From Escherichia coli (GTDB lineage Bacteria; Pseudomonadota; Gammaproteobacteria; Enterobacterales; Enterobacteriaceae): a DNA stretch of 64,000 nt. The DNA lies in assembly GCF_013315695.1 (NCBI RefSeq), contig NZ_CP054353.1. One strand, given 5' to 3'. The notes below the pieces were generated by a model. The model ran no database searches and was not told the origin of the DNA. It was given only the letters and a program-made list of their open reading frames with translations. Positions within the stretch are counted from its first letter, which is position 1; each line of letters opens with the position of its first letter. Below, in pieces: positions 50,309-57,451 of this stretch. A program made the translations under genes and the position numbers.

Positions 50309-50818
50309 GTGGCTACGCAGACTGAAGTTGCCAGGCATTTAAGTCTGACCGATCGCCAGCTTCGCAGATTGCAGAAATTGCCGGGTGCCCCGATATCGAA
50401 TAAGCGAGGGCAACTGGATCTGGATGCCTGGCGCGATTTTTACATATCGTATCTGAGAAGAAGTAAAAACGATGTGCCTGATGGCGATAGCGAAGACGAC
50501 TATGAGGAGAAATTGCTTATTGCCAGATGGGAACTGACAGCAGAACAGGCTGTTACACAGCAGTTAAAAAATGAGGTGTCAAAAGGAAAACTTATTGACA
50601 CCGGGTTCTGTATTTTTGCCCTCAGCAAGCTGGCAATGGCGTTATCCAGTACGCTTGATTCCATCCCTTTATCCATGCAGCGACAGTTTCCTGATTTAAC
50701 ACCGCGCCATCTTGACCATCTGAAAACCCTTATTGCGAAGGGGGCAAATCAGTGTGCGCGGGCGGGGGATAAATTACCGGATTTACTCGATGAATATATC
50801 AGAGCAACAACTGAATAA
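50309..50818 (+). CDS. terminase small subunit (Nu1-like)
   Basis: 169-aa ORF (GTG start); C-terminal similarity to lambda Nu1. Confidence 0.8.
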   Translation: MATQTEVARHLSLTDRQLRRLQKLPGAPISNKRGQLDLDAWRDFYISYLRRSKNDVPDGDSEDDYEEKLLIARWELTAEQAVTQQLKNEVSKGKLIDTGFCIFALSKLAMALSSTLDSIPLSMQRQFPDLTPRHLDHLKTLIAKGANQCARAGDKLPDLLDEYIRATTE

Positions 50819-52707
50819 TATGATGAGTGCTGTCACAACAGCATTACAGCCCCTGATAAGGGCATTGCCGGTGACGCCAGTTGAATGGGCTGATCAAAAT
50901 TATTATCTGCCTAAAGAATCTTCATATGGTGAGGGAGAATGGAAAACGCTGCCGTTCCAGATCGCCATCATGAACAGCATGGGGAATGATCAGATCCGGA
51001 CTGTTAATCTGATTAAATCTGCCCGTGTTGGCTATACAAAGATGTTGCTGGGGGTGGTCGGGTATTTTATTGAGCATAAATCCCGAAACAGTCTGCTTTT
51101 TCAGCCCACGGATTCTGCCGCTGAAGATTTTATGAAGTCTCACGTGGAGGCGACGATTCGGGATGTGCCATGTCTGAAAGACCTTTCTCCATGGCTGGGG
51201 CGTAAACATCGTGACAATACTCTCACGCTGAAACGCTTTTCATCGGGTGTGGGCTTCTGGTGCCTGGGCGGCGCTGCCGCCAAAAACTACCGTGAAAAAT
51301 CCGTGGACGTGGTCTGCTATGACGAACTTTCCTCGTTCGAACCGGATGTCGAAAAAGAGGGTTCGCCAACCCTGCTTGGGGATAAACGTATTGAGGGCTC
51401 TGTATGGCCCAAATCCATTCGCGGCTCGACGCCTAAAATCAAAGGCACCTGCCAGATCGAAAAAGCGGCCAACGAGTCGGCGCATTTCATGCGTTTTTAT
51501 GTGCCCTGCCCGCACTGTGGGGAGGCGCAGTATCTGAAATTTGGCGATGAGTCCACGCCTTTTGGCCTTAAATGGGAGAAGGACAGCCCCGAAAGCGTTT
51601 TCTACCTCTGTGAACATCATGGCTGCGTGATCCATCAGTCTGAGCTTGACCAGAGCAACGGGCGGTGGATCTGTGAAAACACGGGGATGTGGACCCGCGA
51701 CGGTCTGACGTTTTTCAGCGCTGCGGATAATGAAATTCCGCCGCCGCGCTCCATCACATTCCATATCTGGACGGCGTACAGTCCGTTCACCACCTGGGTA
51801 CAGATTGTCTATGACTGGCTGGATGCACTGAAAGATCCCAACGGCCTGAAAACCTTTGTGAACACCACGCTGGGCGAGACCTGGGAAGAGGCCGTGGGCG
51901 AAAAACTCGATCACCAGGTGCTGATGGATAAGGTTGTGCGTTACACGGCTGCGGTGCCTTCCCGGGTGGTTTATCTGACGGCGGGCATTGACTCGCAGCG
52001 AAACCGTTTTGAGATGTATGTCTGGGGATGGGCTCCGGGAGAGGAAGCCTTTCTGGTGGATAAAATCATCATTATGGGGCGTCCCGATGAGGAAGAGACG
52101 CTGTTACGTGTGGATGTGGCGATCAACAAAAAATACCGCCATGCAGACGGAACCGAAATGACCATTTCCCGTGTCTGCTGGGACACCGGGGGGAATTGTC
52201 TATCAGAGGTCAAAAAAACACGGTGTTTTCCGGGTGCTGCCGGTAAAAGGTGCATCTGTTTATGGCAAGCCGGTGATCACCATGCCAAAAACCCGCAATC
52301 AGCGGGGCGTGTATCTGTGCGAAGTGGGGACGGACACCGCAAAAGAAATTCTCTATGCCCGTATGAAAGCCGATCCCACGCCTGCGGATGAAGCCACGTC
52401 GTATGCCATCCGTTTTCCTGATGATCCGGAGATTTTTTCGCAGACAGAGGCGCAGCAACTGGTGGCGGAAGAGCTTGTGGAGAAGTGGGAAAAAGGAAAG
52501 ATGCGTCTGCTGTGGGATAACAAAAAGCGGCGTAACGAAGCGCTGGACTGCCTGGTGTATGCCTACGCGGCATTACGTGTGTCCGTGCAACGCTGGCAGC
52601 TTGATCTGGCTGTACTGGCAAAATCCCGGGAAGAAGAGACGACCCGGCCAACCCTTAAAGAACTGGCAGCGAAGCTGTCCGGAGGAGTGAATGGTTACAG
52701 TCGCTGA
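50790..52707 (+). pseudogene. terminase large subunit (lambda A-like) with a frameshift at 52188-52193
   Basis: N-terminal frame (MNISEQQLNN...RVCWDTGG) and C-terminal frame (GIVYQRSKKHGVFRVLPVKGASVYGKPV...) both match lambda gpA as recalled, but are offset by one base at a run of six G. Confidence 0.8.
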
Positions 52708-52897
52708 ACTGCAGGCGCTGCGTCAGGCGCGCCTTGATTTATTAACCGGTAAACGGGTGGTGTCTGTCCAGAAAGATGGTCGCAGAATTGAATATACGGC
52801 AGCTTCTCTGGATGAGCTTAACCGGGCGATCAATGATGCGGAGTCGGTACTGGGGACAACCCGCCGTCGCCGTCGTCCGCTGGGAGTGAGGTTATGA
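52691..52897 (+). CDS. head-tail joining protein W
   Basis: 68-aa ORF ...LTGKRVVSVQKDGRRIEYTAASL... close to lambda gpW. Confidence 0.85.
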   Translation: MVTVAELQALRQARLDLLTGKRVVSVQKDGRRIEYTAASLDELNRAINDAESVLGTTRRRRRPLGVRL

Positions 52898-54486
52898 AAC
52901 GAACGCCTGTCCTGATTGATGTGAACGGCGTTCCGCTTCGGGAGAGCCTCAGCTACAACGGTGGCGGTGCAGGATTTGGCGGGCAAATGGCAGAGTGGTT
53001 GCCACCCTCGCAGAGTGCCGATGCGGCCCTGCTGCCCGCGTTGCGTCTGGGGAATGCCCGTGCAGATGATCTGGTGCGCAATAACGGAATAGCGGCCAAT
53101 GCGGTGGCCCTGCATAAGGATCACATTGTCGGGCATATGTTTCTGATCAGTTACCGTCCGAACTGGCGCTGGCTGGGGATGCGGGAGACCGCGGCAAAAA
53201 GTTTTGTCGATGAGGTGGAGGCGGCCTGGTCAGAATACGCAGAAGGGATGTTTGGTGAGATCGACATGGAAGGGAAACGCACGTTCACGGAATTTATCCG
53301 TGAAGGTGTGGGCGTTCATGCGTTTAACGGCGAAATCTTTGTGCAGCCGGTCTGGGATACGGAGAGCACGCAACTGTTTCGTACGCGTTTTAAAGCCGTG
53401 AGTCCGAAACGGGTGGACACGCCAGGACACGGTATGGGGAACCGTTTTCTGCGGGCCGGTGTGGAGGTCGATCGATATGGTCGTGCCGTTGCGTACCATA
53501 TCTGTGAGGATGATTTTCCTCGCTCCGGGAGTGGACGATGGGAACGGATCCCGCGTGAACTTCCCACCGGGCGTCCGGCCATGCTGCATATTTTCGAGCC
53601 GGTGGAGGACGGGCAGACCCGTGGGGCCAATCAGTTTTACAGCGTAATGGAACGGCTGAAGATGCTCGATTCCCTGCAGGCAACACAGCTTCAGTCGGCC
53701 ATAGTGAAGGCGATGTATGCAGCGACGATTGAAAGTGAACTTGATACCGAAAAGGCCTTTGAATATATCGCCGGTGCGCCGCAGGGGCAGAAGGATAATC
53801 CGCTTATTAATATTCTGGAGAAGTTCTCCACCTGGTATGACACGAATAGCGTGACGCTGGGCGGTGTCAAAATTCCGCACCTTTTCCCCGGTGATGATCT
53901 GAAACTTCAGACCGCGCAGGATTCAGACAATGGATTTTCGGCGCTTGAACAGGCGCTGCTGCGGTATATCGCCGCCGGTCTTGGCGTTTCCTACGAACAG
54001 TTGTCCCGTGATTACTCGAAGGTCAGTTATTCAAGTGCCCGCGCATCCGCCAATGAGTCGTGGCGCTATTTTATGGGGCGGCGAAAATTTATTGCGTCCC
54101 GGCTGGCCACGCAGATGTTTTCCTGCTGGCTGGAAGAGGCACTTCTTCGGGGGATTATTCGTCCGCCACGGGCGCGTTTTGATTTTTATCAGGCGCGATC
54201 AGCCTGGTCACGGGCTGAGTGGATTGGAGCCGGAAGAATGGCCATTGACGGGCTCAAGGAGGTTCAGGAATCAGTGATGCGCATTGAGGCCGGACTGAGC
54301 ACGTATGAGAAAGAGCTGGCGCTGATGGGCGAGGATTATCAGGACATTTTCCGCCAGCAGGTCAGGGAATCTGCAGAGCGGGAAAAAGCCGGACTCTCAC
54401 GTCCGGTGTGGATAGCGCAGGCGTATCAGCAGCAGATAGCGGAGAGTCGCAGGCCGGAAGAGGAGACAACACCACGTGAGACGTAA
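52894..54486 (+). CDS. portal protein (lambda B-like)
   Basis: 530-aa ORF with long near-identical stretches to lambda gpB (VEDGQTRGAN.FYSVME..KMLD.LQ.TQLQSAIVKAMYAATIESELDT). Confidence 0.9.
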   Translation: MKRTPVLIDVNGVPLRESLSYNGGGAGFGGQMAEWLPPSQSADAALLPALRLGNARADDLVRNNGIAANAVALHKDHIVGHMFLISYRPNWRWLGMRETAAKSFVDEVEAAWSEYAEGMFGEIDMEGKRTFTEFIREGVGVHAFNGEIFVQPVWDTESTQLFRTRFKAVSPKRVDTPGHGMGNRFLRAGVEVDRYGRAVAYHICEDDFPRSGSGRWERIPRELPTGRPAMLHIFEPVEDGQTRGANQFYSVMERLKMLDSLQATQLQSAIVKAMYAATIESELDTEKAFEYIAGAPQGQKDNPLINILEKFSTWYDTNSVTLGGVKIPHLFPGDDLKLQTAQDSDNGFSALEQALLRYIAAGLGVSYEQLSRDYSKVSYSSARASANESWRYFMGRRKFIASRLATQMFSCWLEEALLRGIIRPPRARFDFYQARSAWSRAEWIGAGRMAIDGLKEVQESVMRIEAGLSTYEKELALMGEDYQDIFRQQVRESAEREKAGLSRPVWIAQAYQQQIAESRRPEEETTPRET

Positions 54487-55981
54487 TCTTTCACACATTA
54501 TTGCCGCAGCATTCAATGAACCGCTGCTTCTGGAGCCCGCCTATGCGCGGGTTTTCTTTTGCGCGCTCGGGCGCGAGATGGGGGCAGCAAGTCTTTCGGT
54601 ACCGCAACAGCAGGTACAGCTTGATGCTCCCGGGATGCTGGCTGAAACGGACGAGTACATGGCCGGAGGTAAACGACCGGCCCGTGTTTACCGGGTGGTG
54701 AACGGTATTGCGGTACTGCCGGTGACCGGCACGCTGGTGCACCGGCTGGGGGGGATGCGGCCATTTTCCGGAATGACTGGCTATGACGGCATTGTCGCCT
54801 GTCTTCAGCAGGCAATGGCAGATAGCCAGGTGCGGGGCATACTGCTGGACATTGACAGTCCGGGCGGGCAGGCCGCCGGCGCGTTTGACTGCGCTGACAT
54901 GATTTACCGCCTCCGGCAGCAGAAGCCGGTCTGGGCACTGTGTAATGACACGGCCTGTTCTGCAGCCATGCTGCTGGCGTCGGCCTGCTCCCGACGGCTG
55001 GTTACCCAGACATCCCGTATCGGCTCCATTGGCGTGATGATGAGCCATGTCAGCTATGCCGGTCATCTGGCGCAGGCCGGTGTGGATATCACGCTGATTT
55101 ACTCAGGAGCGCACAAGGTGGATGGCAATCAGTTTGAAGCGTTGCCGGCAGAGGTTCGCCAGGACATGCAGCAGCGGATTGATGCGGCGCGCCGGATGTT
55201 TGCCGAAAAAGTGGCGATGTATACCGGTCTGTCTGTTGATGCGGTCACGGGAACAGAGGCTGCCGTTTTTGAAGGTCAGTCCGGCATTGAGGCCGGGCTG
55301 GCGGATGAATTAATCAATGCGTCGGATGCCATCAGTGTGATGGCCACGGCGCTGAACAGTAATGTCAGAGGAGGCACTATGCCGCAATTAACTGCAACGG
55401 AAGCCGCCGTGCAGGAGAACCAGCGAGTGATGGGGATCCTGACATGCCAGGAAGCGAAAGGACGTGAACAGCTTGCCACGATGCTGGCAGGGCAACAGGG
55501 CATGAGCGTTGAACAGGCCCGGGCGATTCTGGCCGCGGCGGCACCGCAGCAGCCGGTGGCATCCGCACAGAGTGAAGCCGATCGCATTATGGCGTGTGAA
55601 GAAGCGAACGGTCGTGAACAACTGGCGGCAACGCTGGCGGCGATGCCGGAGATGACGGTGGAAAAAGCCCGCCCGATCCTGGCTGCTTCACCGCAGGCGA
55701 ATGCCGGACCATCACTCCGTGATCAGATCATGGCACTGGATGAGGCAAAAGGGGCTGAGGCGCAGGCTGAACAGCTGGCTGCCTGCCCGGGAATGACTGT
55801 GGAGAGCGCCCGGGCTGTGCTGGCTGCGGGATCAGGTAAGGCAGAACCGGTCTCTGCATCCACAACCGCCCTGTTTGAACATTTCATGGCGAACCATTCA
55901 CCGGCTGCGGTCCAGGGGGGCGTGTCACAGGCGTCAGAAGACGGTGATGCGGACGTGAAAATGCTCATGGCCATGCCATGA
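54476..55981 (+). CDS. head protease/scaffold (lambda C/Nu3-like, S49 peptidase family)
   Basis: 501-aa ORF; C-terminal half carries three tandem ~35-aa repeats. Confidence 0.8.
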   Translation: MRRNLSHIIAAAFNEPLLLEPAYARVFFCALGREMGAASLSVPQQQVQLDAPGMLAETDEYMAGGKRPARVYRVVNGIAVLPVTGTLVHRLGGMRPFSGMTGYDGIVACLQQAMADSQVRGILLDIDSPGGQAAGAFDCADMIYRLRQQKPVWALCNDTACSAAMLLASACSRRLVTQTSRIGSIGVMMSHVSYAGHLAQAGVDITLIYSGAHKVDGNQFEALPAEVRQDMQQRIDAARRMFAEKVAMYTGLSVDAVTGTEAAVFEGQSGIEAGLADELINASDAISVMATALNSNVRGGTMPQLTATEAAVQENQRVMGILTCQEAKGREQLATMLAGQQGMSVEQARAILAAAAPQQPVASAQSEADRIMACEEANGREQLAATLAAMPEMTVEKARPILAASPQANAGPSLRDQIMALDEAKGAEAQAEQLAACPGMTVESARAVLAAGSGKAEPVSASTTALFEHFMANHSPAAVQGGVSQASEDGDADVKMLMAMP

Positions 55982-56017: not shown

Positions 56018-56368
56018 ATGGTGACGAAAACCATCACTGAACAGCGTGCGGAAGTACGTATTTTTGCCGGTAATGATCCGGCTCACACCGCCACAGGCAG
56101 CAGCGGGATTTCCTCGGCAACACCGGCACTGACACCCCTGATGCTGGATGGGGCCACCGGGAAACTGGTGGTCTGGGACGGACAGAAAGCCGGTAGTGCG
56201 GTTGGCATACTGGTACTGCCGCTTGAAGGCACAGAGGAGGTGCTGACCTATTACAAGTCGGGGACCTTTGCGACGGAGGCAATCCGCTGGCCTGAAAGTG
56301 TGGATGAACACAAAAAGGCCAACGCCTTTACCGGCAGTGCCCTGAGTCACGCGGCGCTGCCGTAACAC
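56018..56368 (+). CDS. head decoration protein D
   Basis: 115-aa ORF ...DPAHTAT...TPLMLD...YYKSGTF... lambda gpD-like. Confidence 0.85.
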
Positions 56369-56422: not shown

Positions 56423-57451
56423 ATGGGATTGTTTACGACCCGCCAGTTACTCGGTTATACCGAACAAAAAGTTAAATTCCGTGCGCTGTTTCTGGAGCTG
56501 TTTTTCCGCCGTACGGTGAATTTCCACACCGAAGAGGTGATGCTGGACAAAATTACCGGAAAAACGCCGGTGGCGGCCTATGTCTCCCCGATCGTTGAAG
56601 GAAAAGTGCTTCGCCATCGCGGTGGTGAAACCCGCGTGTTACGTCCGGGCTACGTCAAGCCCAAACACGAATTTAATTACCAGCAGGCGGTTGAGCGCCT
56701 TCCTGGTGAAGATCCGGCTCAGCTGAACGACCCGGCCTACCGTCGTCTGCGTATCATTACCGATAACCTCAAACAGGAAGAGCACGCCATTGTCCAGGTG
56801 GAAGAAATGCAGGCGGTGAATGCCGTGCTGTATGGCAAATACACCATGGAAGGGGATCAGTTTGATACTGTCGAGGTGGATTTCGGGCGCTCTGAAGGAA
56901 ATAACATTGAGCAGGCTGACGGTAAAAAATGGTCTGAGCAGGACCGTGATACGTTTGATCCGACGCATGATATTGACCTCTACTGCGATCAGGCCAGCGG
57001 CCTTGTGAATATCGCCATTATGGACGGTACGGTCTGGCGTCTGCTGAATGGCTTTAAGCTGTTCCGCGAAAAACTGGATACCCGTCGCGGCTCAAATTCA
57101 CAACTCGAAACGGCAGTGAAAGATCTGGGGGCGGTGGTGTCCTTCAAGGGGTATTACGGCGATCTGGCCATTGTGGTGGCGAAAACGTCTTATGTGGCAG
57201 AGGACGGTACCGAAAAACGTTATCTGCCGGAGGGCATGCTGGTGCTGGGGAATACGGCAGCAGAGGGCATTCGTTGCTATGGTGCCATTCAGGATGCGCA
57301 GGCGTTGTCCGAAGGTGTGGTGGCCTCTTCCCGTTACCCGAAACACTGGCTGACCGTGGGCGATCCGGCCCGTGAATTCACCATGACGCAGTCCGCACCG
57401 CTGATGGTGCTGCCGGATCCGGATGAGTTTGTGGTGGTACAGGTGAAATAA
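56423..57451 (+). CDS. major capsid protein E
   Basis: 342-aa ORF with extended identity to lambda gpE (GYVKPKHE ... TRRGSNS.LETAVKDLG ... GDPAREFTM.QSAPLM). Confidence 0.9.
   Translation: MGLFTTRQLLGYTEQKVKFRALFLELFFRRTVNFHTEEVMLDKITGKTPVAAYVSPIVEGKVLRHRGGETRVLRPGYVKPKHEFNYQQAVERLPGEDPAQLNDPAYRRLRIITDNLKQEEHAIVQVEEMQAVNAVLYGKYTMEGDQFDTVEVDFGRSEGNNIEQADGKKWSEQDRDTFDPTHDIDLYCDQASGLVNIAIMDGTVWRLLNGFKLFREKLDTRRGSNSQLETAVKDLGAVVSFKGYYGDLAIVVAKTSYVAEDGTEKRYLPEGMLVLGNTAAEGIRCYGAIQDAQALSEGVVASSRYPKHWLTVGDPAREFTMTQSAPLMVLPDPDEFVVVQVK

Follow-up and report, generated by a model that had tools for sequence, protein, structure and literature searches.

The 64,000-nucleotide (nt) stretch of Escherichia coli contig NZ_CP054353.1 (assembly GCF_013315695.1) analysed here, which we call the window, contains a prophage whose prohead protease/scaffold gene encodes three tandem copies of a short protein unit near its C-terminus. 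The gene (54476..55981, on the plus strand like all the features below unless stated; 501 amino acids with a GTG start in the list of open reading frames, ORFs) is the counterpart of coliphage 21 gene 5 and an analogue of lambda C, and sequence comparison identifies its three repeats with the Tri boxes known from gene 5/6 of the phage 21 type, so that they are an already known feature met in a prophage copy. We hold the statements that follow on the identity and evolution of the Tri units, taken together, with very high confidence. As to their role, the best overall explanation, to which we give slightly better than even credence, is that the units are old tandem modules that anchor the scaffold.

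The window gene is 98.2 % identical to phage 21 gene 5 (M81255.1) at the DNA level, with 1506 of 1506 nt covered, and the two proteins have the same length and differ at 10 of 501 residues; the genes are distinguished by point substitutions only, and three of these (A364T, A373V and N409D) fall within or beside the units. The phage 21 gene 5/6 also has the same putative internal start with its GGAGG and the same three repeat regions. These are recorded in M81255.1 ('Bacteriophage 21 head gene operon') as three repeat_region features in gene 6, named Tri1 box, Tri box and Tri3 box, noted as 'function unknown; putative' in an annotation dated 1993. When mapped to the window the boxes fall at 55446-55549, 55586-55696 and 55727-55840, and their in-frame translations are the cores of the units. 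The window copy, unlike that of phage 21, sits in a prophage with an 11 nt deletion in the terminase gene. A literature search found no paper on these repeats, but it did not extend to the name 'Tri box' or to the paper that first described the phage 21 sequence.

The repeats are well supported at the protein level. Three overlapping segments of the C-terminal region, aligned pairwise, give local BLOSUM62 scores of 101, 87 and 99, compared with a mean of 27-28 and a standard deviation (SD) of 5 for composition-preserving shuffles, corresponding to z values of 11-14. A hidden Markov model (HMM) built from the units places unit 1 at residues 314-357 (55415..55546, 77.9 bits), unit 2 at residues 367-409 (55574..55702, 84.2 bits) and unit 3 at residues 414-456 (55715..55843, 77.6 bits), holding the Tri1, Tri and Tri3 boxes respectively; the unit spacing is 53 and 47 residues and the conserved core of the unit is 35-38 residues long. 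The original prediction, made from the sequence of the window, was of three tandem repeats at 55390-55790, and the self-alignment and the three HMM units confirm both their number and their location, except that unit 3 runs about 50 nt further, to 55843. Unit 3 (...PGMTVESARAVLAA), the most deviant of the three, also departs from the motif it proposed, with L for C, GAE for GRE and VLAA for ILAA. Tandem Repeats Finder (TRF) detects no array in the DNA of the window gene, and thus the repeat exists at the protein level only; a blastp self-comparison of the protein returns the identity match only. The aligned DNAs of the units, lambda's included, have a mean column identity of 67 %, and the exact in-register DNA words that they have in common are about 8 nt at most.

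The repeats lie where they had been predicted to lie, in a C/Nu3-like scaffold region that belongs to the gene of an S49 protease. The whole 501-residue protein matches PHROG 53, 'head maturation protease' (E-value, 8e-229), and its N-terminal two thirds correspond to a Peptidase S49 domain (residues 146-293, 54911..55354; Pfam PF01343, E-value, 3.8e-35, 121.6 bits against a cutoff of 24.9), with the repeats C-terminal to it. Ser162 of the window protein (ACSAA) aligns with Ser166 of lambda C (NCSAG), which is reported to be the catalytic serine of that enzyme (Medina et al., 2010), and catalysis by the window protein is a prediction from this alignment. An internal ATG at 55379, corresponding to Met302 of the long ORF, lies 4 nt downstream of an apparent GGAGG ribosome-binding site (55370..55374) and appears to open a separate, in-frame scaffold gene with a putative product of 200 residues (55379..55981; phage 21 gene 6, the analogue of lambda Nu3). 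Both phage 21 records (M81255.1 and OL657228.1) carry a gene 6 coding sequence at the same offset, marked 'putative', and in both the equivalent GGAGG is annotated as its putative ribosome-binding site. The units are located in the C-terminal part that is common to the protease (501 residues) and the putative scaffold protein (200 residues). They are followed by a C-terminal tail (residues 457-501, 55844..55978) that contains one predicted helix (STTALFEHFMANHS, residues 160-173 of gp6 in the AlphaFold2 model) and ends in KMLMAMP.

Lambda C resembles the window protein in having an S49 domain, the aligned serine and a scaffold portion with an in-frame internal start, putative in the window, and the lambda gene order of portal, C, D and E is the same as in the window. 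The number of repeats is not the same, however, since lambda C (439 residues) has exactly one unit (ENSRIMGILNCEEAHGREEQARVLAETPGMTVKTARRILAAAP, residues 357-401). The estimate that the window ORF is about 60 residues longer than lambda C was accurate (501 against 439 residues), and the gap of 62 residues is composed of about 99 residues gained in two extra units and their linkers, 7 gained in the tail, and 43 missing from the stretch that precedes the unit, which is 43 residues longer in lambda. Lambda Nu3 starts at residue 239, inside the protease domain, whereas gp6 of the window and phage 21 would start at residue 302, and the lambda tail beyond the unit is unrelated to the window tail except in the last residues. 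We note that the nested scaffolds are nearly equal in length, 200 residues for gp6 (55379-55981) and 201 for lambda Nu3 (L001 5132-5737); this equality despite the different starts and the three units versus one may be a coincidence or may reflect a constraint on scaffold length, a constraint that the four-unit PSJ-22 type described below shows no obvious sign of fitting. We also note that an ending of the form hydrophobic-x-x-Pro recurs on otherwise unrelated tails, as KMLMAMP in the window (55958-55978), DLLNTPV in lambda and LLMSMP, MLARMP and DLDNIPV in other relatives, and could be a separate targeting signal.

The unit itself, a module of roughly 45 residues, is strongly conserved. Among 91 non-redundant units over which column conservation was computed, the most conserved positions are I17 (99 %), A23 (98 %), G25 (99 %), A30 (99 %), A44 (99 %) and L48 (100 %), with further conservation at E22 (93 %), R26 (97 %), L33 (91 %), A34 (98 %), K/R45 (85 %) and P52 (85 %); unit 3 of the window has alanine where 97 % of units have arginine (GAE for GRE). 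With the 91-unit alignment, AlphaFold2 models unit 1 with a predicted local distance difference test (pLDDT) score of 95.2 and a predicted template modelling (pTM) score of 0.79, and with helices at residues 3-19, 27-34 and 41-50. Position 52, a proline in 85 % of units, comes just after the third helix, preceded by the alanine-rich positions 49-51 and followed by the linker. The whole 200-residue gp6 is modelled with a pLDDT of 82 and a pTM of 0.41, its units helical, its linkers (which are rich in proline, alanine and glutamine) not, and with the extra helix in the tail. The unit is thus predicted to be a small three-helix bundle, and gp6 to be a series of folded beads on flexible linkers, with no fixed mutual arrangement.

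Sequence searches of the PDB with gp6 and with the 91-unit profile gave nothing meaningful, the best match being a haemoglobin helix (E-value, 0.024), and no Pfam or NCBIfam model matched the unit or the scaffold part. The helix-hairpin-helix family PF00633 was considered for residues 427-450 and rejected, as it scores only 13.1 bits against a cutoff of 24 (E-value, 0.091). Known tandem binding modules that form three-helix bundles, among them the domains of staphylococcal protein A, the GA modules and the UBA/CUE domains, give only the generic scores of such bundles, at 6-18 % identity, and there is no evidence of common descent or of a shared ligand with any of these. The C-terminal helix-turn-helix of the P22 scaffold, gp8, is likewise a small helical element near a scaffold C-terminus, and a basic residue is conserved in its last helix, as K/R is at position 45 in 85 % of the units here; the P22 element nevertheless has two helices rather than three, is present in a single copy and is not accompanied by a fused protease, and no match between this coat-binding element and the unit was found in sequence or in structure. 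It provides our model for a possible mode of action of the unit.

A profile built from four units matched 593 of 1.84 billion representative proteins at an E-value of 1e-3 or below. In 134 of the best 150 matches the unit is present singly, so one copy is the common state, and in the matches that bear an S49 domain it typically lies about 50 residues from the end of a protein of about 440 residues. Three-unit relatives of the window protein include P0122 (505 residues, 58 % identity), P0124 (195 residues, 52 %) and P0121. In a tree of units all of the first units group with the single unit of lambda, and the other two window units likewise group by position, unit 2 with that of P0121 and unit 3 with those of P0121 and P0124. 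As units cluster by position across relatives of 52-58 % identity, the triplication is old and is not a recent expansion; by the same sequence comparisons, unit 1 of the window is the counterpart of lambda's unit, with units 2 and 3 added by an old duplication. P0171 (38 % identity) is an independent case of two units, and the module has therefore been duplicated more than once. P0121 itself, a metagenome representative of 270 residues, has an N-terminal fragment bearing a DPPY DNA-methyltransferase motif fused directly to its three-unit scaffold region, which reflects either chimeric assembly or an unusual fusion of genes.

The close relatives in the protein collection are 451, 452, 482, 501, 551 and 657 residues long, corresponding to 2, 2, about 2.5, 3, 4 and 6 units, and DNA junctions were recovered for six variant alleles. 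Units 1 and 2 are fused in register in two proteins of 451 residues, P0090 (junction GAAGCGAA) and P0086 (junction GCCCG; otherwise the same as the window allele), whereas in P0114 (452 residues, junction CACCGCAG) the fusion lies in the linkers. P0045 (482 residues, junction GC) has lost the last helix of unit 2 through a 57 nt deletion between two Leu-Ala-Ala codon runs, and P0001 (657 residues, junction TGAGGC) has a 468 nt duplication that begins where the protease domain ends and reaches into unit 3. The apparent four-unit proteins P0002 and P0003 (551 residues) were rejected as real expansions; the 150 nt insert is bounded by N at both ends in both contigs (L004 and L014, gene nt 1323 and 1473), and the two assemblies are from one project, indicating an assembly artefact. 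A further variant, P0130 (382 residues), has lost 119 residues between the protease domain's end and a point within unit 2, a deletion that takes out the internal start of gp6, unit 1 and half of unit 2.

The frequency of these alleles was determined in 5426 complete E. coli genomes with junction-specific queries of 121 nt, at an E-value limit that half-matches could not reach. The tail of the gene (55200-55981) is found at 2919 places in 1869 genomes, the intact boundary between units 1 and 2 at 2905 places and intact unit 2 at 2849, and about 97.6 % of the 2919 copies (approximately 2849) thus keep three full units. The junction of the 57 nt deletion occurs in 56 genomes, and as these copies are all at least 99 % identical they represent one clonal allele. 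Two-unit junctions occur in 2 complete genomes, and that of P0090 is absent from the 5426. The junction of the 468 nt duplication was found in 2 genomes only, those of the O145:H28 strains RM12581 (CP007136.1) and RM13514, which have chromosome records within 2 bp of each other in length; this allele (L009 301-2274) encodes 657 residues with six units, one of them partial, and contains a second copy of the internal start. Among phage records covering the whole gene, all 18 keep three units, in a span of 1500-1506 nt. It had been suggested that the region is prone to expansion, and copy number does vary by lineage and rare in-frame alleles do occur; but with about 97.6 % of the genomic copies and all 18 of the phage records keeping three units, the suggestion holds only weakly. 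In-frame changes of length are tolerated in the region and now and then arise there, and its units are old and diverged rather than forming a slippage-prone array. The occasional changes in copy number would arise by illegitimate recombination at microhomologies of 2-8 nt between or within units. Copy number is a character of the lineage, one in lambda, three in the phage 21 type and four in the PSJ-22 type, and is nearly fixed within the phage 21 type.

The PSJ-22 type is a second type of E. coli prophage, represented in strain PSJ-22 (NZ_AP027634.1; L012 627-2243), where the same gene family, position and unit are seen as in the window. Its S49 protease/scaffold protein (WP_064986934.1) has 538 residues, is 61 % identical to the window protein and contains four units with a regular period of 46 residues. 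Units 2-4 are 80-90 % alike and TRF sees an array in the DNA (period 138, 3.6 copies), and this duplication is therefore more recent than that of the window gene, or has been homogenized. The type is present in 104 of the 5426 complete E. coli genomes and has no record in the phage collection that was searched. It was found through protein fragments carrying nearly identical tandem units; most of its traces in short-read assemblies are 'partial' proteins encoded on contigs only a few hundred bases long, as befits an assembly-breaking repeat. In CP091026.1 (L010 2026-3623) a gene of the four-unit type and its neighbours are broken by frameshifts.

To our knowledge, the contact of lambda-type scaffolds with the shell has not been worked out at the structural level. 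We tentatively propose, with somewhat less than even confidence, that each unit is an independent protein-binding anchor, with the major capsid protein or the portal as its partner, which would hold the scaffold, and the protease with it, against the inside of the growing shell. If lambda-type scaffolds are anchored by this unit, it follows that the scaffold of the phage 21 type would be trivalent and that of lambda monovalent. Once assembly is complete, digestion of the scaffold by the protease would let the fragments leave. In lambda, contacts of Nu3 with E, with itself and with C were seen in a yeast two-hybrid study, which also cites previous evidence that incorporation of the portal depends on Nu3 (PMC3224144), and the P22 scaffold binds each coat subunit, at the inner surface of the shell, through its C-terminal helix-turn-helix (PMC9965877). 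Several points weigh against an anchoring role. The conserved positions are mostly core residues together with the E-A-x-G-R turn and may be structural; the extreme C-terminus is conserved as well (KMLMAMP, DLLNTPV, LLMSMP, MLARMP) and may itself be the true targeting signal; one unit is enough for lambda; and unit 3 of the window has lost a near-invariant arginine.

The last two of these points also favour a different explanation, in which units 2 and 3 are redundant, tolerated as extras or spacers where one functional unit is enough, as in lambda. We consider this unlikely, although it is consistent with the alanine of unit 3 at a 97 %-conserved arginine, with the existence of two-unit alleles and with the clonal allele that lacks the last helix of unit 2 in 56 complete genomes. 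The extra units may also fill length, since gp6 has 200 residues and Nu3 201, and lambda gains that length by starting Nu3 63 aligned residues earlier, inside the protease domain. The persistence of three units, with the full motif in units 2 and 3, down to relatives of 52-58 % identity argues against redundancy, however, as do the approximately 97.6 % of copies and the 18 of 18 whole-gene phage records that keep three; the variant alleles may or may not sit in viable phages, and the window prophage itself has a broken terminase gene. Less probable again is that the unit is no anchor to the shell and serves either in self-association of the scaffold or as a cassette for docking or cleavage by the S49 protease. 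The Nu3-Nu3 interaction of lambda (PMC3224144) speaks for self-association, and the AlphaFold2 model, which does not pack the units together, speaks against it within a chain, being a single-chain model that is silent on association between chains. A cleavage cassette, in which the units present would determine how many cuts are made and how large the fragments are, would suit the proline at position 52 in 85 % of units, placed after the alanine-rich positions 49-51 and before the linker, and cuts in the linkers would free bundles of about 5 kDa, small enough to escape.

It is very improbable that the similarity is a compositional accident of a low-complexity region rich in alanine, glutamine and glutamate, or the trace of a repeated DNA element. 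The region is indeed alanine-rich, yet the scores lie 11-14 SD above those of composition-preserving shuffles and the same unit recurs in 593 representative proteins, and as a cis-acting element the DNA copies of the unit are too diverged, with nothing found by TRF. The cII-box pattern is matched twice on the minus strand (window 55384-55397 and 55618-55631), at sites that OL657228.1 annotates as 'CII binding site', but the pattern (TTGYN6TTGY) is no commoner than expected by chance, occurring 9 times in the window against 15.5 expected. The shuffles, the 593 profile matches and this count exclude an origin by chance or as a DNA element, and the CII sites were likewise rejected. The preferred reading, old tandem modules anchoring the scaffold, can be extended to the general proposal that the Tri unit is a widespread domain outside Pfam and NCBIfam that anchors C/Nu3 proteins to the shell or the portal, with its copy number setting the valency of contact. 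We regard this broader proposal as doubtful, but if it were true the natural alleles with one (lambda), two, about 2.5, three, four and six units would be a ready series for the effects of scaffold valency, and would bear on prohead nucleation, yield and size.

The presence of the repeats is in itself nothing new, as their annotation in phage 21 goes back three decades and the prophage copy in the window is 98 % identical. The unit is, though, a confidently folding and strongly conserved module that has neither a Pfam or NCBIfam model nor a solved structure, and in hundreds of protein clusters its presence identifies the scaffold part of a lambda-like head protease. The copy numbers of the lineages (one, three and four), together with the rare variants, would allow a direct test of scaffold valency in capsid assembly, and both the 551-residue artefact and the assembly-breaking four-unit lineage are cautions for automated surveys of repeat number.

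The genes around the protease/scaffold gene are arranged as in phage 21, with the portal gene on one side and the decoration (shp) and major capsid genes on the other. A portal-like ORF (52894-54486, 530 residues) lies upstream, and the two ORFs downstream (56018-56365, 115 residues, and 56423-57451, 342 residues) stand where lambda has its D and E genes. The tail of the window gene is 100 % identical to that of E. coli AR_0017 (NZ_CP024886.1). Further upstream, the terminase large-subunit gene lacks 11 nt that are present in phage 21 gene 2; the deletion lies at about 52194/52195, where the window reads GGGGGGA|ATTGTC and phage 21 reads GGGGGGATCGATGGCGAAATCGTT; the gene is thereby split into two overlapping ORFs in different frames (50733-52391 and 52171-52707). 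The window prophage is thus probably defective for packaging, and its intact gene 5 may therefore no longer be under selection.
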